DNA of 43,712 bases, taken from positions 1 to 43,712 of the forward strand of contig JAHHIK010000069.1 of the NCBI GenBank assembly GCA_019358935.1. Reading direction: 5' to 3'. The notes under the pieces are model-generated. The model was not told the DNA's origin. It saw nothing but the letters and a program-made list of their open reading frames with translations, and made no database searches. This document shows positions 5,506 to 31,755 of the stretch, in pieces. Both the position numbers and the translations under genes were made by a program. Position 1 is the stretch's first letter. Each line of letters opens with the position of its first letter. The stretch is from Tolypothrix carrinoi HA7290-LM1. GTDB taxonomy: Bacteria; Cyanobacteriota; Cyanobacteriia; Cyanobacteriales; Nostocaceae.

Positions 5506-5519
5506 CGCTCCTTGAAATT

Positions 5520-8459: not shown

Positions 8460-8505
8460 ACTAATTGTATCTCTACAAATACCAATTAAACTACTAATAA
8501 TTGCC

Positions 8506-14524: not shown

Positions 14525-15145
14525 TTATTTTGGCAAGTCCCCATTTATATTTCCAATTGTTTGCTCAAAGGCTCTTTGAAAATTATGCGGGGGTATGCCA
14601 ACCATTAAAGCCGCGTCATTGCGTAAATGAATCTCTACATTACGTTCACGCTCAAGAAATAAATTGGCTTGCGGCAAATATCTAGGAGACAGAAAATGAA
14701 TTACCTGGTTGGAAGAGCCACGCCAACCCTTGTTGTCGTTAAGCTCTTGTATATATTGCCCATCAATAAGGACATCAATGATATTGAGAACTTTATCGAT
14801 ATTGTGATCGCATTTTGACCGCAGTTGCTCTATAGTAAAACCTGTAAAACAAATGATGGATATATCTCTTTCTTGTCTCAAGAGAGTGAATAGCTCCAAC
14901 AAAGCCTCTGCTTGAAGCATTGGTTCACCTCCTGAAACTGTTATCCCCTCTGTATTTGACGTAGAAAGCACCATATCTGCTAACAGTTTCGGCTCGATTA
15001 AAGTTGCTTTTATCATGGGTATCCAATCCGGAGAAATGCAGTTTCGGCAACGAAAACAGCAACCTTGAACCCAGATTACAAAACGCTGCCCAGGACCGAG
15101 AGTGTGTGTAGCAGGACAAATTTCTGCAATATTTAGGAGAGACAT
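14525..15145 (-). CDS. NrdG-like radical SAM (4Fe-4S single cluster) protein
   Basis: LGPG.RFVIWVQGCCFRCRNC (CxxxCxxC), GITVSGGEPMLQ, FTGF, DVLIDGQY, WRGSSNQ. Confidence 0.92.
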   Translation of the reverse strand: MSLLNIAEICPATHTLGPGQRFVIWVQGCCFRCRNCISPDWIPMIKATLIEPKLLADMVLSTSNTEGITVSGGEPMLQAEALLELFTLLRQERDISIICFTGFTIEQLRSKCDHNIDKVLNIIDVLIDGQYIQELNDNKGWRGSSNQVIHFLSPRYLPQANLFLERERNVEIHLRNDAALMVGIPPHNFQRAFEQTIGNINGDLPK

Positions 15146-15147
15146 AT

Positions 15148-18100
15148 TTAAAAGGTAACAATAGATTTTTTCTGCGCTGTCTCGTGTTGAATCCGAGCAT
15201 CAGAGAGTTCTTTGTCCAGATCAGCTAATAATTGACGAACTGTTTGGATAATCCTATCAACTTTATTTCTGTCCAGGGGTAGAAGATTTTGAGCCAGAAT
15301 ATTATCAGCTTGATAGTGAGCATGGAGATGAGAATATATTTCATCTGTTTCTTCTGCGTATTTGTTGAATTGTTGAATTGCTGTTTGTAGTTTATCCCAT
15401 GTTTGCTGATAATTTTGTCTTTGCTGTGCTAAATCATTAAGAACAACTGCTAAAGGTTCAGATAGTTTTGCACATTCTTCCTGAGTTAGTCTAATTAATT
15501 CTTGTGCAACAGTCTTTATAGTTGATTGATGTGCCAAATTTTTTTGCTGATAATTCTCAATCTGCGCCTCAAACAGCTTTTGCTGCTCTTGCAATTTTTT
15601 CAAATTATCTTCCAGTTGATTATTTTGCTGTGTCAAATTTTTCAGTTCATTTTCTAGGTTAGCTTTTTGTTGTTGTAAATTTTCCTTCAGTTTACTTTCT
15701 ACATCAGTGGATTGTTCTTTAATTTCTTGAATCGGCAATGCTATTTCATTATTACTTGGTTGTTCTCTTGGTAATGTTTCTGATTTACTAGCACCTGATG
15801 TACTAGATTCAGAATTTGGAGAATTAAATTCTTTTTTATGAGATCCACTAAGTTTTTTATGATTATCTAATTGAGCTAAAGCTTTCTGAATCATCACAAC
15901 TTTTTGATGTGAATCACCATATGCACGAGTATTAATTTCTAGAGCCTGACGATATAATTCTCCTGCTTCGTCAAACTTTGCTAGTGATTCATAAACATAA
16001 GCAAGATTACCCATGTTAGTAGCAATGCTGGGGTGATTCTCTTTAAAAATATGCTTTGTAATCTTTAATGCCTCTTCATATAATTTAGCAGCTTCTTGAT
16101 AACACGCTTCTTTACTAGCATCTTTGTCATCAAGAGCTTGATTTGTGAGATGACTTGCCAATTTATTCAGAATATTAACGACATTTGGATGTTCATTACC
16201 AAGTAGTTGTCGGCTTACATCTAATAACCTTTTATATAAAGCAACTACCTCATGATAACGACCTTGAGACTTATAAAGTTCAATCAGTCTCATTAATCCC
16301 TCTGAAAAATCAGGATTAATTGACTTGTCTTGATTATATATACCAATTGCATCAGTATACATAGATTCCGCCTCTGCTTCGCGGCCAAGAGAACGGTTTA
16401 ACTCTGCAATCTCCAGCATATATTCACAAACATTTGGGTTATCTTTCCCAAATACCTGCTTCGCCACTGCTAACGACTTTTGATAGAACTGTTCTGCATC
16501 TTCTTTACGATTTTGGCTAACTAAAAAACCAGCTAAAACAGACAATTTTTCACCTAATTTTGGATGGCTATCTCCTAGGGTTTGTTGAAACACTTCAATC
16601 GCTTCTCTGTATAGACTCTCCGTTTTTTCGTACTCTTTTTGAGAAAAACTAACATCTGCAAGGACACACAGCAATTCACCATACTTCGGGTGACTTGTAC
16701 CAAGTACAGATTTGTACATTTTTTGTGCTTTTGTTAGGTTTGGCTTGGCTTTATCAGCAGATCCTTGTTCCAGATAATTTACCGCCAAACGCAATAGAGA
16801 TTCAGCAACATCTGTATGTTCTTTTCCATAAATCCGTTCTTGTATTTCTAATGCTTCTCTATAAAGTATTTCTGCATCTTCATGACGACCTTGTGCAGTG
16901 TAAATTGAACCAAGGTTCATCAGGTTTATAGCATGAGTAGGATGTCCTGTATTATCTTTAGATTTGTTAATCTCAATGGCTTGTAGGCAAATTTCTTCTG
17001 CTTCTTGATGTCGCCCTTGAGCAAGATATACTTGTGCTAAATTACTCAAATATATGGCATATATGGGATGCTCATCTCCAAAAGTATCCTCTACTATCTT
17101 TTGAGCATCGCTACAAAATTCCTCAGCAGCACCAGTTAAACCTTGTTCTAGATAAAGAGTAGAAAACTTGATCAAAACATCAATAACAATCACAGGATTT
17201 TTCTGTAAGTATTGCTGACGTTCTTCAGATTCAAACTCTCCCAATTCAAATAGTTTTTCATAAAGTTCTCCAGCTTCCTGATATTTTCCTCGAATTCGAC
17301 AGACATCAGCTAAAGCACTCAAACTCGGAATCAAATCGAGACTCAAATTGGGAGTGAGGTTACGGTCTTGTTTAGCAACTATTTCTTCCAGAATTCTCAA
17401 GGATTCTCTGCAATAATTCTCTGCGTTTTCAAAATAACCTTGAGTAGCTAGTAGCTTTCCTAAATCACTCGACACATTCGCTTCAAAAACAGCTTTAGCC
17501 TCTTCTTCATCAAAGGCATTCTTTGCTTGTGGCAGTAGTTCTCTCAGGGATTTTTCTGCTTTTCTGAAGTTACCCTGTCGTGAATATATATGACTTAGTT
17601 CATATCGACTCCAAAGCAAGTTTATGTCTTTTGTTATTCCACGAGATGCCATTTGTGATTGACATTTTTCTCCCCAGTCTGCGGCTTGAGCATATATTCC
17701 TAAATAAGAATATATCAGCAACAGCCACGTATGAGACATGACAATTTCACTACCGTCCATTAAATAAGAGAAGGTTGTTGCTATTTCTTCAATGTGTGTG
17801 ACAACCAGCATAATTGGAGTATTGTCCACAGCATCAGGAGATTCTCCACGTAGCAGTTGATTGACTAAATTCATTATCTCACAACAGAAGCTTTTTTTGA
17901 GATCATCTGTACCATTAGATTGATCACACTTGTTTTTTATGAACTCACGGACTAGATGATGAAATTGATATAAGCTAGTTTCTTGACGTTGTAGGAGACT
18001 GAATTTTAATAGCCAGTCATCTCTCAGTTTTTCTACGTTATTAGGTTTCTGCTCGAACTGTAAATGTTCAACTATCCACCAAGGAATAGGAGCAAGAGCA

Positions 18101-19017
18101 AATAAACTCAACAAATAACTCAGTTGTTTTGCATCCTCACTCAATTCTTGCCAGCTAAGTTCAAAAGCAGCAGTAATACTTCTTCCTTGATGATCATCAT
18201 TAATAGCTTCTTGTGCTAGCTTTTCTTTTTCTAGTCGTTTCTGCATTGCTGACACAGATAAATCCTGTTTTCTATCTAGATACCGACCTACTAACTCTAA
18301 ACCCAAAGGCAAATAATCGAGCCATTCACAAAGCTGCTTTGCATAATCCATTTCTTTATCAATGCGCTTATCCTCTTCTCTCAGAATTGATCTCAGTAGT
18401 TTCAAAGCAACAGACTCATTCAAAACAGAAATCTCTAAAAATTTAATCCCAGGTGGTCCATAGGTTAAACGTGTTGTAATCAATACCTTAAAACGGTCTT
18501 CCGAAGGTAAGTAGTTAAAGATTCTGGCAAAATCGTTTACGTCATCGAAAACAATTAAAACTTTTCCTTCACGCCAATGTGACCAACAAAATCCCAACTG
18601 ATTGCGGATATCTAAGTCTTTTGGAGGGTCAATACCAAGAAACGAACGAGCAAAGTCTAAAATGCTCTTGGCAACATCTGTATCTCTAGCTGAGAGCCAG
18701 CAAATACCACCTCCATAGATTTCTTGGTATTGGCGTGCATATTGAATAGCTAGCTCAGTTTTACCAATGCCACCAGTACCGTAGAGAGCAATTACATAGA
18801 ACTGCATGAAGTCCTCATAGATGTTTTTAACTACCTCTTCACGACCGATAAACTCTGTAGCGTTGGGAAGAGGAACATTCATGGGAAAACCCGTAGGCTG
18901 TGAAGTTACAGGACTTGTCCCCAAAATCTGGTTCAGAATACCAACAGTTGTCGTACCCCCCTGATTCACTAAGCCTGCTTTTTGTGCAGAGATAGAATAA
19001 TTTTCATTACTGGGCAT
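15148..19017 (-). CDS. NLR-like STAND protein: short N-terminal motif, NB-ARC, kinesin-light-chain-type TPRs, C-terminal coiled coil
   Basis: FIGRE, GTGGIGKT, VLIVFDDV, VLITTR, YLPLGL, FHHLV; repeated G..HP..A....NLA..Y..QG TPRs; S-rich linker and about 200-aa coiled-coil tail. Confidence 0.92.
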   Translation of the reverse strand: MPSNENYSISAQKAGLVNQGGTTTVGILNQILGTSPVTSQPTGFPMNVPLPNATEFIGREEVVKNIYEDFMQFYVIALYGTGGIGKTELAIQYARQYQEIYGGGICWLSARDTDVAKSILDFARSFLGIDPPKDLDIRNQLGFCWSHWREGKVLIVFDDVNDFARIFNYLPSEDRFKVLITTRLTYGPPGIKFLEISVLNESVALKLLRSILREEDKRIDKEMDYAKQLCEWLDYLPLGLELVGRYLDRKQDLSVSAMQKRLEKEKLAQEAINDDHQGRSITAAFELSWQELSEDAKQLSYLLSLFALAPIPWWIVEHLQFEQKPNNVEKLRDDWLLKFSLLQRQETSLYQFHHLVREFIKNKCDQSNGTDDLKKSFCCEIMNLVNQLLRGESPDAVDNTPIMLVVTHIEEIATTFSYLMDGSEIVMSHTWLLLIYSYLGIYAQAADWGEKCQSQMASRGITKDINLLWSRYELSHIYSRQGNFRKAEKSLRELLPQAKNAFDEEEAKAVFEANVSSDLGKLLATQGYFENAENYCRESLRILEEIVAKQDRNLTPNLSLDLIPSLSALADVCRIRGKYQEAGELYEKLFELGEFESEERQQYLQKNPVIVIDVLIKFSTLYLEQGLTGAAEEFCSDAQKIVEDTFGDEHPIYAIYLSNLAQVYLAQGRHQEAEEICLQAIEINKSKDNTGHPTHAINLMNLGSIYTAQGRHEDAEILYREALEIQERIYGKEHTDVAESLLRLAVNYLEQGSADKAKPNLTKAQKMYKSVLGTSHPKYGELLCVLADVSFSQKEYEKTESLYREAIEVFQQTLGDSHPKLGEKLSVLAGFLVSQNRKEDAEQFYQKSLAVAKQVFGKDNPNVCEYMLEIAELNRSLGREAEAESMYTDAIGIYNQDKSINPDFSEGLMRLIELYKSQGRYHEVVALYKRLLDVSRQLLGNEHPNVVNILNKLASHLTNQALDDKDASKEACYQEAAKLYEEALKITKHIFKENHPSIATNMGNLAYVYESLAKFDEAGELYRQALEINTRAYGDSHQKVVMIQKALAQLDNHKKLSGSHKKEFNSPNSESSTSGASKSETLPREQPSNNEIALPIQEIKEQSTDVESKLKENLQQQKANLENELKNLTQQNNQLEDNLKKLQEQQKLFEAQIENYQQKNLAHQSTIKTVAQELIRLTQEECAKLSEPLAVVLNDLAQQRQNYQQTWDKLQTAIQQFNKYAEETDEIYSHLHAHYQADNILAQNLLPLDRNKVDRIIQTVRQLLADLDKELSDARIQHETAQKKSIVTF

Positions 19018-19066
19018 AATTTAGCTTCCTTGATTGCTGTATATTCACTTGACAATAAGTAAAACT

Positions 19067-20632
19067 TTACTTGAATCTTGATGTAAGAATATCTGCAAAG
19101 ATTTCCAATTCGCACTCTAAGCTCTGCTGAGCTTTACAGTCTTCAATCACTAAATACAATATATTTGCATGGCTGACTCGCATTCCTACTCGCCAATTGT
19201 TATCGCTAGAATAATTCGGTAATTGTCTACCATCTAACTTGACTTCTTTAAAAATACGCCCTTGTATATTGGCATCTACCCACACAGTTATAGTTAACAG
19301 ATGTTTTGTAAATGCTATTAGTAAAGGTCGGTCGATAAATTTGGTGTTTAGTAAGTCATCTAAATTTGTGCCACTTTGGATAATCGGAATCAACTGTTGT
19401 TCTTTTTCCGCATGAGCATTCAAACTTTCTCCCACAATGCCAAATGTATATGCACATCTTTCAACGGGGTCAATTAAGCTGTTAGCTATGAGACATGCAC
19501 CGTGGGAGATAGCAAAAGAACTGTGAGCATTGTTGAAGTTGGGATCAGAACGGGGGTCGTTTTCTTGAATATCCAGAGTTTGCAGGATAGCATTTTGAGC
19601 TAGGATAAATTGGGATAAATCACCTATAAGAAACAGAAAATCAAACGATTGTTGATGGCTTTGCATCCAGATTTGCAAGCGTTGGCTCATCTCCTGAATT
19701 GTGTTTTGGATAGGTGCAAATGCTTCACTGATGTGTCGGCATTTGACTGCATATCCACCACCAAAGCAATAGAGGTTGTATTCTGACATTGCCTCTGGCA
19801 TTTTCAAATATGTCATCAGTCTGCTAGTACTTTCTGGTTGAGAGTTAAGTTTTTTTAAGTCAAAATCTCTCAGTAAACGCATAAATTCAGGATTTTCTTT
19901 AGTTAAAGAATCCCCATGTTTTTGAGTATAGGCTAATTGTACACATCGGCGATCAAAGGCAAAATCTGCATCTTCTTGTGAGTCTGAATAGATAACCTTG
20001 ACTTTGTTCGTCGTACTGATGGCACACAAACTCAGGTTCAAACTACTACTCCCTAGATGACAAACTAACAGGTTGCCATGTGTTTTTAGGTGCTGGTGTT
20101 GCTTTTGCCAAATCCAGTATGCAGCAGCAGCAACAGAATCACTAATTAATTGAAAATTCTTTTCTGCTATGCCCAGTTCGTTCACAATTAGCTGCTCTAA
20201 ATATCTTTTTTCTGGACTAGTGATATCTCGGTAATAACTTTCTGGTATAGAGATAACTAGGCTGGCAATCTTACCTTTTTGCTGACTAAAACTAGAATTC
20301 TTAACTGTTGAGGAAAACAACAACTCACGTAAAAAATCTGCTGTGACAGTCATGCGTTCGCGCTGCTGTCGCTCCCGATTCCAATACTCTAAGGCATGAA
20401 AAAGCAGTTGCTTCTCAAAGCGCCCATAGCAGTCTATATTTGGGTTACAGATTATCTCAATACGAGCTGCATCACCAATTACTATGCTATTACCATCGTA
20501 TACAATCCAACCGGTAATGTGTTTTTGTTTATTATCAGACTCGTACTCAAAGATATGTAATTCACCGTTCGCTAGGTAAGAAACTACTGAGTTAGCCGTA
20601 CCAAAGTCAAGCCCAACTTGATGTGGAAACAT
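19067..20632 (-). CDS. Divergent Hsp70-family protein with degenerate ATPase motifs
   Basis: VGLDFGTANSVVS intact; SDSVAAA, VCHLGSSSLNLS and LIGDLS where EPTAAA, DLGGGTFDVS and LVGGSS are expected; AISHGACL. Confidence 0.8.
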   Translation of the reverse strand: MFPHQVGLDFGTANSVVSYLANGELHIFEYESDNKQKHITGWIVYDGNSIVIGDAARIEIICNPNIDCYGRFEKQLLFHALEYWNRERQQRERMTVTADFLRELLFSSTVKNSSFSQQKGKIASLVISIPESYYRDITSPEKRYLEQLIVNELGIAEKNFQLISDSVAAAAYWIWQKQHQHLKTHGNLLVCHLGSSSLNLSLCAISTTNKVKVIYSDSQEDADFAFDRRCVQLAYTQKHGDSLTKENPEFMRLLRDFDLKKLNSQPESTSRLMTYLKMPEAMSEYNLYCFGGGYAVKCRHISEAFAPIQNTIQEMSQRLQIWMQSHQQSFDFLFLIGDLSQFILAQNAILQTLDIQENDPRSDPNFNNAHSSFAISHGACLIANSLIDPVERCAYTFGIVGESLNAHAEKEQQLIPIIQSGTNLDDLLNTKFIDRPLLIAFTKHLLTITVWVDANIQGRIFKEVKLDGRQLPNYSSDNNWRVGMRVSHANILYLVIEDCKAQQSLECELEIFADILTSRFK

Positions 20633-20994
20633 AAAATTTAATTTATAAAACTAAACATTAAGCTGCTTGCTGTGTGTTGTTCTGTCGCTAACGCACTAGC
20701 TACAACAAAACCTACCTGACAAATTTAAGATTTACTTTACAAATCAGGTCTAACCATCGCTTTTGAGTATTGTCATAATAGTAGCCAGTGATCAACTGAG
20801 AATATCAGGATATTTTTTTGTTTTGATTTTAACTCAATTTTAGAAAACAATAATGTGCATTGTTTTTATTTTAGTGATAAACTAACCACTAATCCTAGTA
20901 AAAACCTGGATTTTTTTCTGCGTCGAGATAAAAAACTATCATTTTTTAGGTGTAAAAAGTAAAAAAAATTACATTAATAAATGCAATTAAATTT

Positions 20995-21107
20995 TATTAC
21001 TCCCTTCCCGCTCGAAGAATACTTATTTAACGAACCGCGAAGACACGAAGGACACGAAGGAGGAAGAAAAAGAAGATAGGTAATTTTGTAGCGGGAAGGG
21101 GGTAATA
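20995..21107. mobile_element. MITE with TA ends (IS630-like architecture)
   Basis: TATTACTCCCTTCCCGCT ... AGCGGGAAGGGGGTAATA (one mismatch); internal gacacgaag tandem. Confidence 0.75.
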
Positions 21108-21128
21108 GCCAACTTACAGCCTAACAAT

Positions 21129-22013
21129 ATGAGAATTGTGGAGATTGGTCATGAGGGAGTTGGTAAAACAACATTCATGGCATCTATGTACGGTACGTTA
21201 CAAAGAGGCATTGAAGGATTCAGTTTACGGGCAACTTACATCAACGATCACAATAGGCTGATTAAACTTGCCAAAAATATAGAACAGAATAAGTATCCTG
21301 CTCCTACAGACCAAAGGCACGAGTATCAATTTTACTTACAGTATCAAGGTAAAGATATTTTCCCCTTTACATGGGCTGACTATCGGGGGGGAGCTATCCG
21401 AGAAACTCAAGACAGCGAACAGGCTAGATTGTTGCAGAAAGATTTACAGCAGGCAGATGGTGTTTTAATTTTTTGTGATTGTCAGGCTCTTGTACAAAAA
21501 GATAGCCGAAGAAATCAAATTGGTAGAATGACGGCACTGATTACAAATGCGTTAAAAAATATAGAACGCCCGATTGGACTTGCGGTTGTTTTAACTAAAG
21601 CAGATTTAGTCGATGAACTAAATGAAGATGACCTCAAAATCTTTGAGGGATTGTCAAAAGCTATAAAAATCAGTAACTACATTGCAAGTATGATGATTCC
21701 GGTTGCCTGTGGGCCAGAACCGATAAATGTTCAAATACCTTTACTGTTTGTACTCTACATAGGGGTCTTTATCCAAGCCAATTATCTTGCTAAAGAAATA
21801 GAGGAACATCAGCAGATGGCGGAATACTATGAAAAACAAACTCACGGTTTTGGTGGTTTTGTACAGGAGCTGTGGGATATTTTCCAAGGCAATACTACTT
21901 ACAGAGCAATGTCTCAGGATAGTCTAGAAAAAGCGATCGCAAAGTACAAAGAATTAGAACCACTGATTGAACCTGTGGAAGCATTGAAGAAGTATCTCTC
22001 AATTGGCGAGTAA
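21129..22013 (+). CDS. TRAFAC-class GTPase 1
   Basis: G1 GHEGVGKTT, G2 PAPT, G3 DYRGG, G4 TKAD; C-terminal helical/amphipathic tail. Confidence 0.88.
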   Translation: MRIVEIGHEGVGKTTFMASMYGTLQRGIEGFSLRATYINDHNRLIKLAKNIEQNKYPAPTDQRHEYQFYLQYQGKDIFPFTWADYRGGAIRETQDSEQARLLQKDLQQADGVLIFCDCQALVQKDSRRNQIGRMTALITNALKNIERPIGLAVVLTKADLVDELNEDDLKIFEGLSKAIKISNYIASMMIPVACGPEPINVQIPLLFVLYIGVFIQANYLAKEIEEHQQMAEYYEKQTHGFGGFVQELWDIFQGNTTYRAMSQDSLEKAIAKYKELEPLIEPVEALKKYLSIGE

Positions 22014-22050
22014 TAAGACAAGATGAAAAATAAAATAAGGAGATTAACAG

Positions 22051-23187
22051 ATGTCTCGTTGGGCAGTGATCGTCTATGGTCGAACTTATGAAGTTGATTT
22101 TCGCTTCCTAGCTCTTCCTCATGACTTTAATAGGGCAGAACAAGATTGGACGATGGCCCATATCCAAACGATGACTCGTCTTGCAGAAGACTTACCAGGT
22201 AAGCCGCGATGGGCAGTTTTCAAAAATGACAAGCTTTGTGTAGTTGGGGTCGCCTGCATGGCGCGTGACCTTGGTAGTCAAGTCAATACCAACGATGAAG
22301 AAGATATAACACGAGACCAAAGAGGGCGTCCACTTTACACCTTTGTGGGGTATGCTACAAGACTCGGAGAACAAGACGTAGTTGAAATTCCTGACTATTT
22401 GAATAAAAATTTAAGCTTATTTAGCCGTCCCTACTATGAGTATGTATCTGTAAATTGGCGAGTCAAATCATATGATAGCAGAAGCAGTGTCGCTATTCCT
22501 ACAGACTACCAAGATTGTCTCCCGACTGTTGAAATTCCTGCTGACTTAAATAGAAGAGAATTTAGCTTGAATGTAGCAGAAGATGATGCAGTTTACCTAT
22601 GGTGTGATCGGGAAGAAGAAAGGCATTATCTATGGACTGCTGCTGCTGAGCAGATTCGCGCAGGTCACAATGTTTCCTTGTGTTTGGGTCTGGCATTGCG
22701 GAACAATGCTATTAATGGAGCTTTCCTCAACGCCACGGCTGCTGATGTCGCAGCAAAGGAAAAAATAATTAGGATACAGGAAAGAACTCCTGTTTCTTTA
22801 CCAGACTCTGCTTCTAAGTTAAGTGAACCCACACCGAACCTACAAAGTCCTGGGAGTGGAAAGCATAAAATAGTTTTCATATTGCTACAAGTAAGTGCTG
22901 GAATAATTGGAGCGATTTGCGGATTTCTAGTAGCTAGAATACTGAAATTGGGAACTGCTAAAGTTGCGGTCTATACTTTTGTCGGAGGGGTCATTGCTTG
23001 GATTCTACTGCTTCTTGCTTTTGCAGTAAATCTTCTGGTTAAAAATAATTCTTCTGTGAAACCTAGATTTCATCAAAATGATCGTGACTCGAACGTTTCA
23101 TCCTCCAACCAGGATCGAATGCTTGGTTTTAGAGATAAAACCGAGCAGGATAGGACAGAAGAAGATGATTTTATGGGATGGAGATAA
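22051..23187 (+). CDS. GTPase-associated (GAP1-like) protein with two TM helices
   Basis: YGRTYEVDFRF and RDQRGRPLYTFVGY; two TM helices near the C-terminus; paralog of 25357..26850. Confidence 0.7.
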   Translation: MSRWAVIVYGRTYEVDFRFLALPHDFNRAEQDWTMAHIQTMTRLAEDLPGKPRWAVFKNDKLCVVGVACMARDLGSQVNTNDEEDITRDQRGRPLYTFVGYATRLGEQDVVEIPDYLNKNLSLFSRPYYEYVSVNWRVKSYDSRSSVAIPTDYQDCLPTVEIPADLNRREFSLNVAEDDAVYLWCDREEERHYLWTAAAEQIRAGHNVSLCLGLALRNNAINGAFLNATAADVAAKEKIIRIQERTPVSLPDSASKLSEPTPNLQSPGSGKHKIVFILLQVSAGIIGAICGFLVARILKLGTAKVAVYTFVGGVIAWILLLLAFAVNLLVKNNSSVKPRFHQNDRDSNVSSSNQDRMLGFRDKTEQDRTEEDDFMGWR

Positions 23188-23189
23188 GT

Positions 23190-24179: not shown

Positions 24180-24365
24180 ATTTTTTAATTCCCAACTAAT
24201 AGTTCATTTATAAAACAAATCTTAAGCTTGTCTGAAGAAAAGAAATTGGGTTTATTCGTATATCAAGTATAATTATTTATACCAAAAATCTGATTTGTAT
24301 AATTTAAGTTTTTCTTTATAAATCAACTCTCATAGCCGCACTGATGACTAACAAAGGAGATATTT

Positions 24366-25364
24366 ATGGCAGCCGAGGCTAAGATTACGATGTTAGGTGT
24401 TGAGGGAGCAGGAAAAACCTGCTACATGCTGGGACTATACGCGACCATGCAGTTGGGCTTACAAGGATTCACCTTAACAACTACTGACATGGATGAAGAC
24501 TTGAGATTGACTAGTTTATGGGAGAAAATGGTTGATGAAGAAGGAGAAGATCGGTGGCCCCTACCAACAGGTGGCGAGCCGCATCAATACGAGTTTGATT
24601 TCAGTTATGGTATGAGACCACTGATTAGCTTCGATTGGTTAGATTACCGAGGTGGAGCTATGAAGAATTTATCCACACAAGCAGACGTTCAGATACTCAT
24701 GAAGCGACTTTTGGAATCAAGTTGCGTGTTTTTGTGTGTTTCTGGGGAGCACTTGAGGGAAGAAGTAAGCAGTGACATGGAACTAATGTCTGTTGCCAGG
24801 AAAGCAGGAGTTGACAGAATGAATAAATTCCTGATGGATCTATCAAAAAATCTTAAGGACTCCCAAAGACCTTTTCCTATTGTGATTGTAATTACTAAGT
24901 ACGACCAATGTGCCGAACGGGCACAAGATAAGGCATCAAGGGAAAAGTTATTTGATGACATTAAAAAAATGTTCAATGCATTATTCTTGCCAAATAAAGA
25001 TTGGCTAGTGATGCTCTGTCCAGTGACTTTAGGTAAAGGGCTGGAAGAAGATAGTCTTACAGGAAAGATACAGCCTAAAAATTTACATTTACCTCTAGTG
25101 TTTGCACTGTATGCAAAGCTCCGTGAATATGCAATGACTGAACAAGCTAGGGTGAATGAAACAAAAATCAGATTAGATACAATAAAAAGTGGAAAATGGT
25201 TTCAACGATTGTTTACTGGCGACGATCAACGCGCAACTGAGTCGTCTTTAGAGAATTATCAAAATCAGCTGCAAGAGATTCAGAAAAGAATGGCTTTATT
25301 AGCTCAAGAACTAACAAACGCGCAAATGTTCCTTGGCGGGAAGGAGCAACAGGTCGATGTCTGA
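24366..25364 (+). CDS. TRAFAC-class GTPase 3
   Basis: GVEGAGKTC, WPLPT, DYRGG, TKYD; AAGGAG RBS; C-terminal coiled coil. Confidence 0.88.
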   Translation: MAAEAKITMLGVEGAGKTCYMLGLYATMQLGLQGFTLTTTDMDEDLRLTSLWEKMVDEEGEDRWPLPTGGEPHQYEFDFSYGMRPLISFDWLDYRGGAMKNLSTQADVQILMKRLLESSCVFLCVSGEHLREEVSSDMELMSVARKAGVDRMNKFLMDLSKNLKDSQRPFPIVIVITKYDQCAERAQDKASREKLFDDIKKMFNALFLPNKDWLVMLCPVTLGKGLEEDSLTGKIQPKNLHLPLVFALYAKLREYAMTEQARVNETKIRLDTIKSGKWFQRLFTGDDQRATESSLENYQNQLQEIQKRMALLAQELTNAQMFLGGKEQQVDV

Positions 25365-26850
25365 AGAAACTTCCGATATTATTCTCGATACACAAACGCC
25401 TGTATCAAAATGGGCACCCATTATCTATGGGCGAACCTATGCAGTAGATTTCCGTTTTCTTGTTATTCCTCATAACTTTGATGACCAGTTCAAAGATTCG
25501 TTATGGGAATATATTAAAGTGACAACCCGTGGAGCGGAAAATCTCCCAGAAAACCCACGCTGGATATTTATAAGGAGTAAACAACGTTGCGTAGTTGGTG
25601 TAACTTGTATGGTCAGGGATTTAATAGGTTCCCAAGCGGGCAATACTCCAGAGGATTTAACAAGAGATAAACTTGGGCGACCATTGTATGTCTTTGTCGG
25701 TTATGTTTCAGAAGACCCCATGACATCTATCATTCCAGCCATGAATTTGGAACTTTTCGCCGAGCCTTACAAAGAATTTGTCCCACAGAAATGGCAAGAA
25801 GTTTATGCTGACCTTGGCAGCAATCAAGCAGTTCCACAGGAACTGAAATCACAGTATGATAGGGAATTTACTTTGCAAGAATTAGCAACTGAGGACTTAA
25901 ATCAAGAGCGAATTTCAATTGACAAATTTTTTTCAAACAGGCAGAATTCAATTATTTTTTGGAATATATCTAATGCCATAAATATATGGTTTACTACCTC
26001 AAAAAATAATGAGCCTTTATCAATTTGTTTTGGAAATTTAAGTAAGCGAGATTTAATTACTTCTAAGTTTCAAAATGCTGTAATTGATGAGGTGGAATTT
26101 CGAGAAGTAGAGACAAAAGTGCAAGATGTTTCACCCTCACAACCTTCTCCCCAATCTCCGAAACAACAAGTTTCTCGACGGAACACTGATTATTCATCAA
26201 ATCAGCCTGTTGAGCGTAATATTCCTCGTCAAGGTGTTGAACATAGCAGTAACTTGCTGATTGATGCGTTTTCTAGTTTATCTAGTTTATATGTTGGGAC
26301 GGCTACTGGTCTGTCCCAGATGGTGCGAAGTAGTATTGAGTTGATCGGGGGAGAAGATGAGGCTAGAAAGGTCGATAAAATTATGATTACGAACCTAGCT
26401 CCTATAGTTAAGCTACTACTGCCTGATGAAGTTGTCGATGAAATGTGTTCACAAGTAGTGAAGTTAGATGAGTGGAAAAAAAGGTTATTAGCTGCCATAA
26501 GAGAACACAAAGCTCAGTTATATCAACTAGAAGAGGAAAGAGAGGATTTGCTCAGACAGGGTAGGTATGCGGAAGCTGAGGCGATAAAGAGCGAAGAAAA
26601 TCGAATCCGTCAGAAACTAAAGCTTGTAGATGACAAATTGGAAGAACTCACGAATTTAATTCCTCGAAAGCGAAGTCATTCAAAGCAGCTAGGACAGTCT
26701 AGACAGTCAGAGCAGGTAAACAGAGAAGTTCAAACAGATATGAATTTTGGTTTCAAAGAAAAAGAGCAATCTTTCGAAAATGAAGCTAAAGATAGAAGAG
26801 AAAGCACTGAAAATAACCCACCAAAATCGAAAGACCTTTGGGAATTGTAA
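25357..26850 (+). CDS. GTPase-associated (GAP1-like) protein with coiled-coil C-terminus
   Basis: YGRTYAVDFRF and RDKLGRPLYVFVGY; start overlaps the GTPase 3 stop. Confidence 0.7.
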   Translation: MSEETSDIILDTQTPVSKWAPIIYGRTYAVDFRFLVIPHNFDDQFKDSLWEYIKVTTRGAENLPENPRWIFIRSKQRCVVGVTCMVRDLIGSQAGNTPEDLTRDKLGRPLYVFVGYVSEDPMTSIIPAMNLELFAEPYKEFVPQKWQEVYADLGSNQAVPQELKSQYDREFTLQELATEDLNQERISIDKFFSNRQNSIIFWNISNAINIWFTTSKNNEPLSICFGNLSKRDLITSKFQNAVIDEVEFREVETKVQDVSPSQPSPQSPKQQVSRRNTDYSSNQPVERNIPRQGVEHSSNLLIDAFSSLSSLYVGTATGLSQMVRSSIELIGGEDEARKVDKIMITNLAPIVKLLLPDEVVDEMCSQVVKLDEWKKRLLAAIREHKAQLYQLEEEREDLLRQGRYAEAEAIKSEENRIRQKLKLVDDKLEELTNLIPRKRSHSKQLGQSRQSEQVNREVQTDMNFGFKEKEQSFENEAKDRRESTENNPPKSKDLWEL

Positions 26851-26885
26851 GCTAATAATTATACCAGTTTCTTTTACTTCACTGG

Positions 26886-27704
26886 TTATAAATTCCACAT
26901 ATCATTTTTATCTGGCTTTGAGCCTGATAGCCTTTCACGGAGGCGTTCTCGATCTTCATTAGCTTTGTTTAGTTCTGCTTGTACTTCTTGTAACTGTCCT
27001 TGTAGGCGATTACGTTCTTGTTCAACGTTGAGCAATTTTGCCTCAATTTGAGAAAGCTCTGCTTTAAGTTGAATTTGTGAGCAATTCGCCTGATGTTGTA
27101 ACTCTGATTTTTCGTTTTCTAATTTTTTGATATTATCCTGAAGATTATTTTGTTGTTGTTTGAAAGATTCTAAAGTAGCTTGAAACTGCGATCGCTCTTG
27201 TTCATATGTGTTAATTCTCTGTAAGAGACGCTCGTTTTCTTGCGTAAGTTCTGCAACCTGACTTTGCAGGTGCGATCGCTCTTGCTCAACTGTGATTTTC
27301 TCCCTAGTGATAGTCTCTGTTTGCGATTGGAGTTGCGATCGCTCCTGTTGAATTAGCTGTAATTTTGTACTCAAATCGTTTTTCTCGTGATTTAAGGATT
27401 CTATTTGTGATTCTAGGTGCGATCGCTCTTGTGCAAATTGTGATTCGCTCTGGTGTATGACTGTCTCTAACCTAGTTTTTTCTTGTTGTAATTGTGCGAT
27501 TTCTGCGGCTGATAGAGCAGGTAACCGTTGCTGCTTCACCCAAATTTCTTGTGCCCAGTTTAACTTTATCTTTTCTTTAGATATATACGCATCAGGTATC
27601 TGCCCCACAAATGTCAAGGGATAGGGCGTTAAATCCCAGCTACAAATTTGGCAAGTTCCCTCACCTTCTGTGTATTCAGAATTGCAAACAGGACAATTTT
27701 TCAT
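26886..27704 (-). CDS. Zn-knuckle plus long coiled-coil protein
   Basis: CPVC..CQIC N-terminus; repeated QERS heptads. Confidence 0.85.
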   Translation of the reverse strand: MKNCPVCNSEYTEGEGTCQICSWDLTPYPLTFVGQIPDAYISKEKIKLNWAQEIWVKQQRLPALSAAEIAQLQQEKTRLETVIHQSESQFAQERSHLESQIESLNHEKNDLSTKLQLIQQERSQLQSQTETITREKITVEQERSHLQSQVAELTQENERLLQRINTYEQERSQFQATLESFKQQQNNLQDNIKKLENEKSELQHQANCSQIQLKAELSQIEAKLLNVEQERNRLQGQLQEVQAELNKANEDRERLRERLSGSKPDKNDMWNL

Positions 27705-27707
27705 AAT

Positions 27708-30248
27708 TTAGTTCAAACTAGGAATGTCACTAATTGCAAAAGTCAGCATTGCTTCTCCAGTTAAATTCTCCCGCGATATTCTATTCTTCAACTGCCGAAG
27801 CATTTTTTCGTAAAATTTTCGCACATCTCGTCCATTGCCGAAGTTTCTGTGGCGATAATTATACATTCTATGAAAAACCTCCCTCAACTTCTTAACTACG
27901 TTTTCTGGACACTTGATTTGATTTTGCTTGCATAGTCCCATGAAAATCTCAAAAAGTTCTGTGCGGTTATAGTCAGGAAATTCGATCCTGTCACCAATTC
28001 GCGAGACAATTCCCGAATTAGCGTTGAGAAACTCCTCCATTTCCAGGGAATAGCCTGCGAGAATTACTACCAGACGATGGCGTTGATTTTCCATCATTGG
28101 TACTAGGGTATCAATCGCTTCCAGTCCAAAACTCGACCCAGCTAAAGAATATGCCTCATCGATAAACAAAACACCATCTAGAGCAGATTGAATAACTTTT
28201 TTGGTTTTGGGTGCGGTTTGTCCAACATATTCGGCAACAAGGTCGCTGTATCCCACTTCCACAAGATGTCCTTTCTTCAGTAACCCCAAGGCTTTAAAGA
28301 TTTCGCCAACTATCCGAGCCACAGTTGTTTTACCTGTACCGGGATTGCCGAGAAACAACAAATGTCTGGTTTCTAAAGTACTAACTGAATCATAGCCTTC
28401 TGCTTTCAGGCGTTGGTTGGCTCTTTCGGTGTTAACTAATTCATTGACCCTTTGCTTCACATTTTGCAACCCAATCATGTTATCCAGTTTTTGCAAGAGT
28501 TGCCGTAGATGATCTTTGTCTTTGATTCCTTGTTGGCTGATTTCTCGCTCTTCGGGTGGTAAATCCTCTAATTGAAAGGGTTCGCGGAATACATCTAAAT
28601 TTTGTTGTAAAATCCTTTGCGCTCGCCTGGGATACATTGCTTTAAACAGGTTCTCCACAAGTCCGGCGTTGCCAAACTGGGCATCTCGCTCCTCATAGAG
28701 TCGGGTAAATAAATTTCTAAGTGCTGTTTCTAGCTGAGGCGCGATGACTCCTTGTACCTCGGAGACTTTCTGGCGAAAAATTGCCATCAGTTCTTCTGGT
28801 TGATAGTCTTCAAACAGGACTTCCATGGGAAAACGTCTCTTTAGTCCTGGGTTAGAGTTGATAAACTCATTTATATTGTCAGGATAACCTGCAATAATTA
28901 CAGCTAAACGCTTCTTGTCATCCTCCATTCGCTTAAGTAACGTGTTGATAGCTTCTAAACCAAAATTATCGTTTTCTCCTTGGTTAAGATTATAAGCTTC
29001 ATCAATGAAAAGAACCCCATCTAGAGCTCTGTCGATCACACTATCTGTCTTCATCGCCGTTTGCCCTACGTACCCAGCCACCAAATCTTGACGCGCCACT
29101 TCCACAACGTGTCCCTGTTGTAGTAGCCCTAAATCTCGATAAATTTCGCCAATGAGTCTAGCAATTGTAGTTTTACCTGTTCCAGGATTACCCTTAAACA
29201 CTAGATGCAAACGAGGTGGCTCTGTCACCAGACCTTGCTGCTGATATATTTTCTCAATTTTCAACACGTCTGCTTTTTGTCTGACCACTGCTTTTAACGA
29301 CTGCAACCCAATCATTCCCTGGAGACGCTCTAAAGCAGGTTCGGTAGAGACATTGCCTGAAAGCCATTTCTGTTTTCTCGCTTCTACTAAAGAAATTTCC
29401 TGAGCTTCATCGAAGCGAGCGTACCAGTTATTCAAGGTGTAATTTTCTGCGGACATCCATTGCGACAGACGTTGAATCGTCCCCCAGTTAACAGGCTTAG
29501 GTTTCTTTTGATCGAGACGAAAATAGTGGATTAAATGCTCAATCTCATCGGCTCTGGGCGCACCTAAACGGCAAATATTTAATGATTGCCCTGCTTGTTC
29601 TCGATGTAGCAGGAAGTTATGCAGGTAAGTAAAACGATGACGCTCACAAAATTCTGCCAGAACGTTGCGATTATCGCACTGAAATACAAAAATACAACGA
29701 TTACGATTACTAGCTGGCAGACGTGACCATTCAATAATGCGCCCGAATAATTCCTGTTGATTAGTGAAGTAGGCTAGACCTTCAGCATCAGTAAACACGA
29801 TCGCTGATCGTAGCTCTGGCTCTTCCATCGCTGTCTGAAAATGGGGAATTACCGTAATATCCCTCATCAGCGATGGGGCGGAAGTAGAAGCAGTAGGGGT
29901 AGGAGTCACAGGTTCAGACCTATTTGGCAATAGTCTTTTTCTCCGTCCTAATGGCCCTGGTGTGACCATCATTTCATTGCTTGCCAGTGATAATACATTG
30001 GTAGAAGCGCGACGAGGTAGACAGCGATCGCGAGATTCGCCATCTAGAAAATAAAGTTTGCGATGCTGATTAAAGAAGAGGATACGCTGATATCCCTGGG
30101 ACTTGAGATATCGATGTAACACCCATTCAATATCACGCAGCAGCAAATCCGATGTACAAAATTGGTCGCTGGTGTTTGCGCCATAAAGAATGATGAAGCG
30201 ATCGCCTGCTGCTAAGTTCAATCCTGCCGTAACTCTCTCGACAGTCAT
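27708..30248 (-). CDS. Tandem AAA+ ATPase of the SpoVK/CbbX/EccA family
   Basis: Two modules, each with MIGL, GNPGTGKTT, LV..YVGQTA, GVLFIDEAY, AGY, FGN. Confidence 0.93.
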   Translation of the reverse strand: MTVERVTAGLNLAAGDRFIILYGANTSDQFCTSDLLLRDIEWVLHRYLKSQGYQRILFFNQHRKLYFLDGESRDRCLPRRASTNVLSLASNEMMVTPGPLGRRKRLLPNRSEPVTPTPTASTSAPSLMRDITVIPHFQTAMEEPELRSAIVFTDAEGLAYFTNQQELFGRIIEWSRLPASNRNRCIFVFQCDNRNVLAEFCERHRFTYLHNFLLHREQAGQSLNICRLGAPRADEIEHLIHYFRLDQKKPKPVNWGTIQRLSQWMSAENYTLNNWYARFDEAQEISLVEARKQKWLSGNVSTEPALERLQGMIGLQSLKAVVRQKADVLKIEKIYQQQGLVTEPPRLHLVFKGNPGTGKTTIARLIGEIYRDLGLLQQGHVVEVARQDLVAGYVGQTAMKTDSVIDRALDGVLFIDEAYNLNQGENDNFGLEAINTLLKRMEDDKKRLAVIIAGYPDNINEFINSNPGLKRRFPMEVLFEDYQPEELMAIFRQKVSEVQGVIAPQLETALRNLFTRLYEERDAQFGNAGLVENLFKAMYPRRAQRILQQNLDVFREPFQLEDLPPEEREISQQGIKDKDHLRQLLQKLDNMIGLQNVKQRVNELVNTERANQRLKAEGYDSVSTLETRHLLFLGNPGTGKTTVARIVGEIFKALGLLKKGHLVEVGYSDLVAEYVGQTAPKTKKVIQSALDGVLFIDEAYSLAGSSFGLEAIDTLVPMMENQRHRLVVILAGYSLEMEEFLNANSGIVSRIGDRIEFPDYNRTELFEIFMGLCKQNQIKCPENVVKKLREVFHRMYNYRHRNFGNGRDVRKFYEKMLRQLKNRISRENLTGEAMLTFAISDIPSLN

Positions 30249-30261
30249 ATCTATACTACTT

Positions 30262-31755
30262 TTATGATTCTTGTGCAGTCTGATTTACCTGTTCAGTTCT
30301 ACTGACCTGTTGTTGCAAGGCATCCTGAAATAAGGTCTCGATATCGCTTCTTGGCTGCTCTCTGCATACTGTGTCACCTTGAGTTTCTATACCCTGAGAT
30401 TTAAGAGCATCAAAAATTGCCTCAGCGTTCTCTTGTTGGGCAGTTTCATCCCGTAATATTTGACCAAACGAATTAATAGAAACCAAATTCTTACCAAACT
30501 CCTTGTCAGGGCTGATAATAGTGACTACCTCACCCTGGTTGTTATCTCTCAACTTTAAGATATAAGCCTTACGCTCATCATTCCCTTCGTAGATAGAATC
30601 TGCATGAGGATTAATTAAAACATATCCCATGCGACTTAAAACACCCGCTACCTTGTCCGCAATTTCTGCTCTTAACTGCGAACTCAAAATCTCTCGCTGT
30701 GCCTGTTCTACAATCTCAGCTAAACAAGGCTGTAGCTCTTCAATCTGCTGAGCAATTTCGCGGATTTGCTCCGTCGTTAAAGTTGATTCACCTGTTTGCA
30801 GACGGGTTTCAATTTCCTGGAGTTTTTGCTCATATTTTTTGAGGTTACCATTTGTCCAATAATCTACTTCTAAGCGGAACTTTTGCGATTCATCGGCTTG
30901 CCCAATTTCAATTTCATATTCACGATTGGCTTGTACCTCTGCAATTAAGCTTCTTAAATCTTCCAGAGCGGCATTATAGAGGAGCTCCCATTCCTGCTGC
31001 TTTAGCTCTAGCTCCAAACGCAAGTCAGCAAGTTTAAAGTAGGTTTGTTGGCTAATGGCGATCGCTGCTTCTAGTACACCATCTTGAATATTATTCCGAG
31101 CCAGTTTTATCTCCCGTGTGAGGTCATTGAGTTTACCAGGAGCAAAGCGTTGATGTTGGTAGTTGCGATCTATCTGCTCCCAAATCGTCTGTACGTCATC
31201 CAGAATATCCTGAGCTAAAGTAGCTTTATCCTGCTTTTCTTGCTCCAGCCGTTGCTGCAATTGTTCACGTGCTTGACGCTCTTCGTCTATGAGTTCTGTA
31301 AACTTCCGATCGAGATTTTGATTGAGTTCGAGATACTCTTTCCTTTGTTCTGCTGTAATTTCAAGAAATAGGCGGCGCTGCTCATTAAAACCCTCGCGCA
31401 TCGCATCTTCTAGGCGTTCTACCTCAGATTTGAGTGCTTCTTGCTGCTTACTTTCCGAATCACGAATTGCTTTTTGGAATTCTTTGCGTTGTTCCCGCAA
31501 GCGTTGATGAGTTTGCAACTCTAAAATTGCCAAGTTACTTTTGAGTTTCCGAGCTTCCTGCTCCTGTTGTTGCGATCGTTGCTCCAAAGGTGCAAGACGT
31601 TGCTGTAACTCTCGATTTGCCTCTTCTCGGATAGCATTAAGACGCTCCGGGAGGTCTCGCTGTAAAGAGCGCAATCTACTGTCTTGTTCACGTAATCTAC
31701 GCAGTTCCTGCTCTTCAACATTCACATAGCGACGCTTCTCTCCACTCATAGCCAT
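30262..31755 (-). CDS. Long coiled-coil protein with globular C-terminal domain; first gene of the AAA operon
   Basis: E/Q/R-rich heptads; MSGEKRR N-terminus; AGGAG RBS; 13 nt upstream of the AAA gene. Confidence 0.85.
   Translation of the reverse strand: MAMSGEKRRYVNVEEQELRRLREQDSRLRSLQRDLPERLNAIREEANRELQQRLAPLEQRSQQQEQEARKLKSNLAILELQTHQRLREQRKEFQKAIRDSESKQQEALKSEVERLEDAMREGFNEQRRLFLEITAEQRKEYLELNQNLDRKFTELIDEERQAREQLQQRLEQEKQDKATLAQDILDDVQTIWEQIDRNYQHQRFAPGKLNDLTREIKLARNNIQDGVLEAAIAISQQTYFKLADLRLELELKQQEWELLYNAALEDLRSLIAEVQANREYEIEIGQADESQKFRLEVDYWTNGNLKKYEQKLQEIETRLQTGESTLTTEQIREIAQQIEELQPCLAEIVEQAQREILSSQLRAEIADKVAGVLSRMGYVLINPHADSIYEGNDERKAYILKLRDNNQGEVVTIISPDKEFGKNLVSINSFGQILRDETAQQENAEAIFDALKSQGIETQGDTVCREQPRSDIETLFQDALQQQVSRTEQVNQTAQES

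Follow-up and report, generated by a model that had tools for sequence, protein, structure and literature searches.

A multi-NTPase gene cluster on a Tolypothrix plasmid

The window analysed here is the whole of contig JAHHIK010000069.1 of Tolypothrix carrinoi HA7290-LM1 (43,712 bp, forward strand), one of the 184 contigs of a 7.96-Mb genome that is 99.65% complete. Its central part (14525-31755) carries eleven genes for several kinds of nucleoside triphosphatase (NTPase), their partners and a radical S-adenosylmethionine (radical-SAM) enzyme, and is the subject of this study. An exact 105-bp direct repeat lies at the window ends (1-105 = 43608-43712), and an open reading frame (ORF) for a DUF3854 protein stays open across the contig junction, with a 1219-aa frame in a plain end-to-start join that keeps both repeat copies. 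Because the ends are identical and this ORF is uninterrupted across the junction, the contig is a closed circular replicon of ~43.6 kb. Predicted products include a ParA-like protein, an integrase, a MobA/VirD2 relaxase, NikA, an RHH protein and the DUF3854 protein, and by this predicted gene content the replicon is a mobilizable plasmid. A first-pass annotation of this DNA had called the cluster plasmid-borne, which the terminal repeat, the ORF across the junction, the relaxase, NikA and ParA-like genes and a match to a Calothrix plasmid (see below) all bear out.

The eleven ORFs form three runs, with coordinates, orientations and gaps as first described. Run 1 (30262-31755, 27708-30248 and 26886-27704, in reading order) has gaps of 13 and 3 nt, and run 2 (19067-20632, 15148-19017 and 14525-15145) has gaps of 49 and 2 nt; a GTPase cassette (21129-26850) lies between them on the opposite strand. 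Domains in the eleven proteins were annotated with Pfam and NCBIfam, and PADLOC supplied the defence models. The features are listed below, where X denotes a coiled-coil core protein that is encoded as a free protein in most relatives, and unk497 the 497-aa product of the first gene of run 1.

14525-15145, minus strand: radical-SAM enzyme of predicted glycyl-radical-activase type, 206 aa, core (Fer4_12 and NrdG/PflA models)
15148-19017, minus strand: NB-ARC and TPR repeats fused to the C-terminal coiled-coil half of X, 1289 aa (Pfam and free-X matches)
19067-20632, minus strand: core Hsp70-like protein of 521 aa whose ATPase motifs have decayed (HSP70 match and motif alignment)
20633-21128, no strand: divergent 496-nt spacer that separates the Hsp70 run from the GTPase cassette (ORF coordinates)
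21129-22013, plus strand: DO-GTPase, 294 aa, optional module (DO-GTPase2 and DO-GTPase1)
22051-23187, plus strand: GTPase partner, 378 aa, with an N-domain of ~240 aa and two predicted membrane helices at ~272-333
23178-24179, plus strand: DO-GTPase, 333 aa, paralogue of 21129-22013 (DO-GTPase1 and DO-GTPase2)
24366-25364, plus strand: DO-GTPase of a third type, 332 aa (DO-GTPase2)
25333-26850, plus strand: second GTPase partner, 505 aa (uncertain start at TTG), which shares the N-domain of the first and is helical in its C-terminal part
26886-27704, minus strand: zinc-ribbon adaptor of ~60 aa followed by a coiled coil, 272 aa, variable core part (CPVC...CQIC)
27708-30248, minus strand: triple AAA+ protein, 846 aa, with a degenerate N-module and two CbbX/SpoVK-type modules, core
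30262-31755, minus strand: unk497, 497 aa, a long coiled coil with a small alpha/beta C-domain, signature core part

Distribution of the core and of the GTPase cassette

The sole match in PLSDB is plasmid pCAL6303.02 of Calothrix sp. PCC 6303, with 83.7% identity over 92% of the query. It carries all eleven genes in the order GTPase cassette, AAA run, and the run of radical-SAM, NB-ARC and Hsp70 genes, and because it keeps them all in a changed order the runs appear to move as units yet stay together. The two plasmids are closely related. With a Streptomyces relative of unk497 as the query, the Calothrix plasmid was again the only match. In a sample of 401 cyanobacterial genomes, 14 have a match to the Hsp70-like protein, 12 have one to unk497, and 10 have both kinds; the four genomes with the Hsp70-like protein only are 74-87% complete, and both unk497-only matches are fragments. 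The same-genus genome of this sample has a match to neither protein. The two core halves stand side by side in genomes G092, G274, G246 and G182, at protein identities of 37-62%, and lie on different contigs in G328 and G364, with the Hsp70 gene at a contig start.

A scan with an unk497 alignment, taking one genome per species and flanks of up to 10 kb on each side, gave 34 loci, many of them cut by contig ends. Nearly all are from Nostocales or Oscillatoriales, with one from Prochloron and one from a metagenome-assembled genome (MAG) labelled Crocinitomicaceae. The AAA+ gene adjoins unk497 in 27 of these loci and a zinc-ribbon protein is present in 18. The Hsp70-like gene is found in 12, the radical-SAM gene in 10 and X in 13 (12 when a TPR-CHAT protein of locus L059, mislabelled as an NLR, is set aside), and at least one of the three in 16. 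For five of the 18 loci that show no Hsp70, X or radical-SAM gene the rest of the genome was checked, and all five genomes encode a system-type radical-SAM protein elsewhere (63-70% identical), with X nearby in three and, in a fourth, elsewhere on that small contig. A metagenome scan with a 6-sequence unk497 alignment gave three loci. On the metagenomic contig L088 (GC 57%), whose unk497 is 32% identical to that of the window, genes for Hsp70, X, an unknown ORF, the radical-SAM enzyme, unk497, the AAA+ protein and zinc-ribbon-headed WD40 proteins follow one another in a single co-directional run.

On this comparative evidence the six genes for unk497, the triple AAA+ protein, the zinc-ribbon protein, the Hsp70-like protein, X and the radical-SAM enzyme are established as the predicted core of one conserved, patchily distributed system. 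The first-pass annotation had joined all three runs in one machine and had named gene-neighbourhood comparison as the analysis that could refute this. The proposal stands for the two core runs, which co-occur across genomes; it falls for the GTPase cassette, which is optional, being present in 5 of the 34 unk497 loci and missing from most.

Where the cassette occurs with the core, it lies between the core halves (the window, L036, G274 and G182) or abuts the AAA run (L041 and the Calothrix plasmid). Forms with one and with three GTPases are found in different families, and the cassette also occurs in the distant locus L065; G092 and G246 have the full core and no cassette. The partner family was found in six of the 401 genomes and within this cluster in four of them. 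The other two, G101 and G288, belong to one genus and carry a kinase-GTPase-partner arrangement, with no Hsp70-like or unk497 match. Such stand-alone triads of a Ser/Thr kinase, a DO-GTPase and a partner (L082:7683-10693 and L083:9407-12442) recall the kinase theme of GAP1-N2 systems. Because the cassette is mostly found in the cluster, also stands alone, and is present in so few of the unk497 loci, it is by its distribution a separable, optional module that has apparently been recruited repeatedly.

All three GTPases score above the Pfam cut-off of 27 bits for DO-GTPase families, in agreement with the three GTPases first annotated, and have an intact P-loop of the form GxxGxGKT, which places them in the DO-GTPase family (PF19975/PF19993). 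The protein of 21129-22013 scores 55.2 bits with DO-GTPase2 and 39.4 bits with DO-GTPase1 and has the Walker A motif GHEGVGKT. Its paralogue of 23178-24179 (~50% identity) scores 54.5 bits with DO-GTPase1 and 52.3 bits with DO-GTPase2, and the third-type GTPase of 24366-25364, which recurs in G274, G182, L065 and the stand-alone cassettes, scores 32.8 bits with DO-GTPase2. The two partners are paralogues with 31-34% identity over ~250-310 residues; these identities, and those of the GTPases, were read from cross-matches to the Calothrix copies. The 378-aa partner has hydrophobic segments from which its two membrane helices are predicted.

The partners had been called GAP1-like, a proposal that was rejected on sequence. 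Neither 22051-23187 nor 25333-26850 matches a Pfam family, with no GAP1 match at E ≤ 10; PF20013 has no match in the host genome at E ≤ 10 and matches in 1 of 201 cyanobacterial genomes, and hhalign of the partner family against that GAP1-N2 protein gives a probability of 0.15%. Weak leads come from neighbours of the partners that carry GAP1-N2, with language-model scores of 0.84 and 0.77 and structural template-modelling (TM) scores of 0.42-0.44.

Core proteins and their relatives

The AAA+ protein (27708-30248) has two AAA and two AAA_lid_6 matches in Pfam and scores 491 bits over the two modules with the SpoVK model TIGR02881; the EccA and CbbX models also match. Both modules have intact Walker A (GNPGTGKT) and Walker B (FIDEAY) motifs, and these features place the protein in the CbbX/SpoVK/EccA subfamily. 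The double AAA protein of the first-pass annotation is thus recovered, and structure prediction adds a further part. The N-terminal 300 aa are modelled as AAA-like with no P-loop, at a predicted local distance difference test (pLDDT) score of 80.4, and Foldseek gives seven matches at E ≤ 0.001 (Cdc48, Vps4, FtsH and ORC/Cdc6), so that in the model the protein has a third, degenerate AAA-like module at its N-terminus. A distant AAA+ protein of 1079 aa on L088 (8654-11893) carries a Trypsin_2 peptidase domain at its C-terminal end, which gives it the architecture of an ATP-dependent protease. In a Prochloron MAG (L037) and a Rivularia MAG (L038) the AAA gene is in several broken frames, as are Hsp70 and X in the former, which may reflect gene decay or assembly indel errors.

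The signature protein unk497 matches no Pfam or NCBIfam family. It starts with MSGEK, contains a YxHxxFAPG motif, and has a long coiled coil and a small C-domain of alpha/beta type. The C-domain model (pLDDT 77.9) has nothing at E ≤ 0.001 in Foldseek and a best VIA-align Z of 6.6, to a generic alpha/beta arrangement. A profile search places unk497 in 890 representative clusters, of which 307 reach E ≤ 1e-30, with named members from Chloroploca, Viridilinea, Streptomyces and an Acidobacteriota MAG. Residues M1, S2, G3 and K5 are invariant in 16 distant members, which is unusual at a protein start, and the N-terminus might serve as a site that is recognised or modified, for instance by the AAA+ pore or the radical-SAM enzyme.

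The product of 26886-27704 starts with a zinc ribbon (CPVC...CQIC) followed by WDLTPYP, in keeping with the Zn-knuckle coiled coil first described. This ~60-aa tag, with the consensus CPxC...CxxC[GS]WDLTPYP...IP..F..KE...WAK..W, is found on 38 proteins, one to five of them per locus, and the bodies behind it are coiled coils, WD40, TPR, GUN4, FGE-sulfatase and dynamin-like GTPase domains. The dynamin-like bodies are in L043 and L060. On the Calothrix plasmid (L002, NC_019728.1) a dynamin-family gene and a VWA gene lie at 22322-25298, near ParAB genes.

In most genomes a free ~350-aa protein X is encoded between the Hsp70 and radical-SAM genes. Its N-domain of ~110 aa is followed by a coiled coil and by a conserved C-terminal tail, K-x-x-[FILV]-x-[FL]. 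The large protein of 15148-19017 matches free X only over residues ~1098-1289. Its NB-ARC domain (residues 62-288; PF00931, 56.9 bits against a cut-off of 23.5) has the Walker A motif GTGGIGKT at residue 80 and is followed by TPR arrays, the arrangement of a STAND NTPase, in which a P-loop domain precedes a repeat sensor. The NB-ARC-TPR part also scores 288 bits, against a cut-off of 300, with the TPR protein of the FxSxx-COOH radical-SAM peptide system. NB-ARC-TPR takes the place of the X N-domain in the window, in Calothrix and in Anabaena cylindrica, and in a Rivularia locus an NB-ARC-TPR match beside Hsp70 is truncated by the locus end, with the X part outside the view. The NLR had been counted as a component in its own right: its NB-ARC-TPR architecture is confirmed, and as a core part it is, from these alignments, a clade-specific fusion of NB-ARC-TPR onto X.

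The Hsp70-like protein (19067-20632) has a weak HSP70 match (E 5.7e-5) and aligns to the nucleotide-binding domain of DnaK. Its relatives in 13 other cases retain DFGTTNS, SEPxAAA and D[MI]GGGTFD; the window protein has SDS where the relatives have SEP, and CHLGSSSLN at the phosphate-2 position, where Calothrix and Rivularia have CNMGSSSFN and A. cylindrica CDMGSSTFN. The degenerate phosphate-2 motif supports its earlier description as a pseudo-Hsp70. Degeneration of the ATPase motifs is confined to the four proteins of the NB-ARC-X fusion clade, a loss that fits the NB-ARC domain taking over as the nucleotide switch. We conclude from these comparisons that in the plasmid's clade NB-ARC-TPR has replaced the X N-domain and the Hsp70 motifs have decayed. 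A DO-GTPase cassette, one partner of which is predicted to be membrane-anchored, has been inserted between the core halves. A second, more distant Hsp70-like paralogue (552-587 aa, DCGGGTVD) occurs at L038:4907-8331, L052:11106-12842, L054:13974-17370 and L064:6320-9847; in three of these four loci it is followed by its own 530-594-aa partner, which Pfam marks as coiled-coil in two.

The radical-SAM protein (14525-15145) matches Fer4_12 at E 9.6e-32, and also Radical_SAM. Its best NCBIfam model is NrdG (TIGR02491), at 100.1 bits against a cut-off of 126.1, followed by PflA at 67.9 against 231.75. Alignment with PflA (3c8f) covers both GCCFRCRNC, the cluster motif, and SGGEP; CxxxCxxC and GGE are invariant among 16 family members, and by this alignment the motifs for the cluster and for SAM are both intact. 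Fourteen cyanobacterial relatives share 59-72% identity with the protein, and the family keeps an N-terminal GPGxR loop and a conserved C-terminal extension of ~50 aa. It had been described as an NrdG-like orphan, and the genome agrees: PF13597 (NrdD) and PF01228 (Gly_radical) have no match in the host genome at its 99.65% completeness, while as positive controls the two profiles match in 6 and 3 of 14 reference genomes. A second NrdG-like Fer4_12 gene, 36% identical, stands in an ordinary chromosomal setting in the host (C12:86279-86809; L106:8223-8849), and five other genomes also have a paralogue of this kind (32-36% identical). The X and radical-SAM genes are adjacent and frequently overlap, and are split by inserted genes in three Laspinema/Oscillatoria-type genomes (G401-G403). 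Complex prediction for the radical-SAM protein with NLR residues 1100-1289 returned no answer, with a score of 0.00 against a mark of 0.32.

Two candidate sites for a glycyl radical were rejected. X as the carrier was set aside because its alignment has no conserved Gly. CGY is a feature of NrdD, which prompted a comparison with the CGW/CGY of the zinc-ribbon tag; CPxCG is an ordinary zinc-knuckle feature, and the Gly after the second CxxC is present in only about three-quarters of the 38 tags.

Beyond the core, consensus promoters and terminators number 50 and 12, where shuffled sequence gives 46.4 and 13.9, so that the scan shows no excess. The window also has eight consecutive plus-strand ORFs of 132-660 aa at 3123-9299 with no Pfam family at E ≤ 0.001.

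Proposed function and its alternatives

PADLOC gives only partial, single-domain matches on the window genes (IetA on the AAA modules, LmuB/JetC on the coiled coils, and pVip), and the core is absent from PADLOC and Pfam as a system; it looks like a variant within the known kind of NTPase-gated multi-component conflict systems. The radical-SAM enzyme resembles the NrdG/PflA activases in size class, GPGxR loop, CxxxCxxC cluster, GGE motif and best database matches, but it falls below the equivalog cut-offs, has the conserved C-terminal extension, and is encoded in an oxygenic phototroph in which no NrdD, pyruvate formate-lyase (PFL) or other glycyl-radical domain was found. Prokaryotic viperins are radical-SAM antiviral effectors and offer a parallel for such an enzyme as a possible immune output, but the window enzyme is of a different radical-SAM subfamily, with a marginal pVip match (E 2e-4). 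NB-ARC-TPR antiviral STAND/NLR proteins are immune sensors; the window protein shares their intact Walker A and long TPR array, but it has the coiled-coil half of X in the effector position, its fusion is limited to one clade, and it matches no STAND/Avs model of PADLOC, the repeats hitting a generic TPR model only (E 1.2e-12). The pairing of an Hsp70-family protein with a multi-ring-type AAA+ protein and coiled-coil elements is that of the Hsp70-ClpB bi-chaperone, and CbbX, EccA and SpoVK are the closest relatives of the AAA modules; the window differs from these in having no DnaJ/GrpE partners, an extra degenerate AAA module, and a patchy, plasmid-carried occurrence.

Variable domains of the cyanobacterial ternary conflict systems include FGS, GUN4 and superstructure-forming repeats, according to the accessible text of Kaur 2020 (eLife, PMC7159879), and the bodies behind the zinc-ribbon tag seem conflict-like because most of their types are in this repertoire. 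As far as the same text describes them, the MoxR-vWA ternary systems (VMAP, iSTAND) likewise have a chaperone-type AAA+ ATPase with a constant partner, variable FGS, GUN4, beta-propeller, TPR and STAND proteins coupled by a small adaptor domain, and an enrichment in filamentous or multicellular bacteria. The window system differs in its triple CbbX/SpoVK-type ATPase, its partner unk497 and its zinc-ribbon adaptor, in place of MoxR, vWA and EAD, and in the added trio of Hsp70, X and radical-SAM enzyme; no MoxR or vWA domain has a Pfam match among the eleven window proteins.

The DO-GTPase/GAP1 systems described there (PMC7159879) resemble the cassette in the three DO-GTPase1/2 matches, in a partner gene after each GTPase or GTPase pair, in a partner with C-terminal membrane helices (here, one) and in a kinase-linked stand-alone form. 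Some published GAP1-N2 systems also include Hsp70, but in that part of the literature (PMC7159879) the Hsp70 of this theme is an ordinary one, accompanied by GrpE and DnaJ, and the systems are those of actinobacteria and firmicutes. The window partners, by contrast, have no GAP1-N1, GAP1-N2 or GAP1-M match by Pfam or hhalign, no GASH or FNIII component has a Pfam match among the eleven proteins at E ≤ 0.01, and the cassette is an optional insert in a different core. The CoCoNuT type IV restriction systems (Bell et al., eLife 2024, PMC11090510) share extensive coiled coils, Hsp70-like units of nucleotide-binding (NBD) and substrate-binding (SBD) domains with degenerate ATPase motifs and, in some extended operons, a SpoVK-type ATPase. 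The window has no McrB GTPase, McrC or HEPN nuclease, and a radical-SAM enzyme is not part of CoCoNuTs in the accessible text of that paper (PMC11090510), where the word 'radical' is absent. The accessible parts of Kaur 2020 (PMC7159879), Kaur 2021, a 2026 ParA preprint and the CoCoNuT paper (PMC11090510) do not describe the gene set. Nor does anything in our full-text literature search, although the neighbourhood source data of Kaur 2020 lay outside that search and could list the GTPase cassette. The remark of the first-pass annotation that no characterised system of this composition was known to it is upheld to this extent: PADLOC, Pfam and the literature searched hold none that matches in full.

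Tentatively, and as a reading that we judge only a little short of probable, we regard the locus, one copy of the conserved six-gene core, as an NTPase-gated conflict system that is directed against phages or mobile elements and follows the logic of the 'ternary' systems of multicellular bacteria. The zinc-ribbon-tagged proteins would bind a signal or target, and the AAA+ motor with unk497 would remodel or unfold the tagged proteins. The Hsp70-like protein (here, the NB-ARC domain) together with X would form a nucleotide switch that controls the radical-SAM enzyme, which in turn would use up SAM or have a protein backbone as its substrate; an optional and probably membrane-proximal input would come from the GTPase cassette. 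The radical-SAM enzyme is the likely output by elimination, because it is the only constant non-NTPase enzyme in the core. We infer a defence or signalling role, as the first-pass annotation also proposed, from context. Conflict-like traits are the patchy spread, the carriage on two mobilizable plasmids and the multiplied, variable tagged proteins. Genes for CHAT proteases are found within the cluster or next to it in L041 and L059, and in L088 a type I restriction R subunit lies beside the AAA-Trypsin_2 fusion. Of 122 unlabelled neighbour ORFs, 23 match PADLOC models at E ≤ 1e-8, including a HEC-01A/B pair, MzaA, DrmB, SduA and methylases; the 122 were drawn from 204 ORFs by omitting six near-duplicate Laspinema-type loci, L067, L069, four ORFs of L046 and seven ORFs of more than 900 aa. 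At L046:4943-6747 a complete candidate HEC-01A/HEC-01B pair (E 2e-181 and 2e-81) stands directly upstream of AAA-unk497, and the gene sizes in L056 suggest the same insertion.

Several observations weigh against a conflict role of this kind. No conserved glycine motif of the RVxG[FWY] type is found in X, unk497, Hsp70 or the zinc-ribbon tag, where several single-tag loci have Ser or Cys, and the window Ser, at the position that follows the second CxxC. As first noted for nucleases and NADases, no obvious effector is present: Pfam and PADLOC recognise no nuclease, TIR or pore-forming protein in the window, and PADLOC has no model for this system. The neighbour count lacks a background control, and many of its matches are to generic ATPase, kinase or methylase models. 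In eight Laspinema/Oscillatoria-type loci AAA-unk497 keeps a conserved place on the chromosome, with ordinary genes such as ZnuA as syntenic neighbours, and the core proteins are 50-60% identical across orders, which also suits a cell-biological role. The link between Hsp70 decay and NB-ARC fusion, being confined to one clade, is a single evolutionary event.

It is a serious possibility that the cassette at 21129-26850 is a self-contained GTPase-centric system lodged between the core halves and not a working part of it. It is missing from 29 of the 34 unk497 loci and from the full-core genomes G092 and G246, a GTPase of the same family stands alone with a partner and a Ser/Thr kinase in G101 and G288, and Kaur 2020 (PMC7159879), in the text available, describes DO-GTPase systems as autonomous units. 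Yet in the 401-genome sample four of the six partner-bearing genomes have the family inside this cluster, the cassette repeatedly lies between the core halves or against the AAA run, and it does so in one- and three-GTPase forms across families, with a further occurrence in the distant L065. More doubtful is a role for the radical-SAM enzyme as a maturase that modifies a protein of the system itself, such as the tail of X or the MSGEK start of unk497, with protein assembly as the output. The adjacent and often overlapping X and radical-SAM genes, the conserved tail of X, the invariant M1, S2, G3 and K5 of unk497 and the near-threshold score with the FxSxx-COOH system TPR protein would all suit it, as would the radical-SAM enzyme of the FtsH ternary systems, which probably modifies an effector peptide according to the accessible text of Kaur 2020 (PMC7159879). 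Set against these, the enzyme is of the minimal NrdG/PflA type with only Fer4_12 and Radical_SAM matches and none to a peptide-maturase family, X has no conserved glycine, and inserted genes separate the two in G401-G403.

We consider it unlikely that the system is a non-conflict apparatus for protein remodelling or the cytoskeleton in filamentous bacteria, in which an Hsp70 and AAA+ pair like DnaK-ClpB would act on coiled-coil and zinc-ribbon clients in shape, septa or differentiation. The named relatives of unk497 do belong to filamentous lineages (Nostocales, Oscillatoriales, Chloroploca, Viridilinea and Streptomyces), long coiled coils account for four of the core or variable parts, the AAA-unk497 pair is in stable chromosomal synteny in Laspinema-type genomes, and the GUN4 tags hint at a link to tetrapyrrole status. 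However, no more than 12-14 of 401 cyanobacterial genomes have a match to the system, the same-genus genome not among them, two copies are plasmid-borne, a DO-GTPase module is embedded in it, and the variable, multiplied tagged proteins and the NB-ARC, CHAT and trypsin links are typical of conflict systems. Very improbable is a chance neighbourhood of three runs of unrelated plasmid cargo. The runs lie on two strands with a 496-nt spacer and are ordered differently in the Calothrix plasmid, but for the two core runs chance is already contradicted by co-occurrence at genome and locus level across families, and by the co-directional core of L088.

Returning to the NTPase-gated conflict reading, a more specific form of it, which we think quite improbable as it stands, is a new class of immune-type machine of filamentous multicellular bacteria (Cyanobacteria, while its signature protein has relatives in Chloroflexota and Streptomyces) with a radical-chemistry output on protein, in which the switch frees the activase-like enzyme and the AAA+ protein and tagged sensors set the threshold. 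In an oxygen-evolving cell a backbone radical would lead to site-specific cleavage of a host or invader protein, or SAM would be burned; the threshold would be set by a triple AAA+ unfoldase with swappable zinc-ribbon-tagged sensors. If the general conflict reading holds, a widespread multi-NTPase system, with a signature protein in 890 representative clusters, would stand outside the defence catalogues, and the 'ternary' logic of conflict systems would gain a new motor, adaptor tag and enzyme class. The replacement of Hsp70 by NB-ARC within one machine would bear on how NLR-type sensors came to be assembled, and an orphan glycyl-radical-activase-like enzyme would acquire a testable context in organisms without a known glycyl-radical enzyme.

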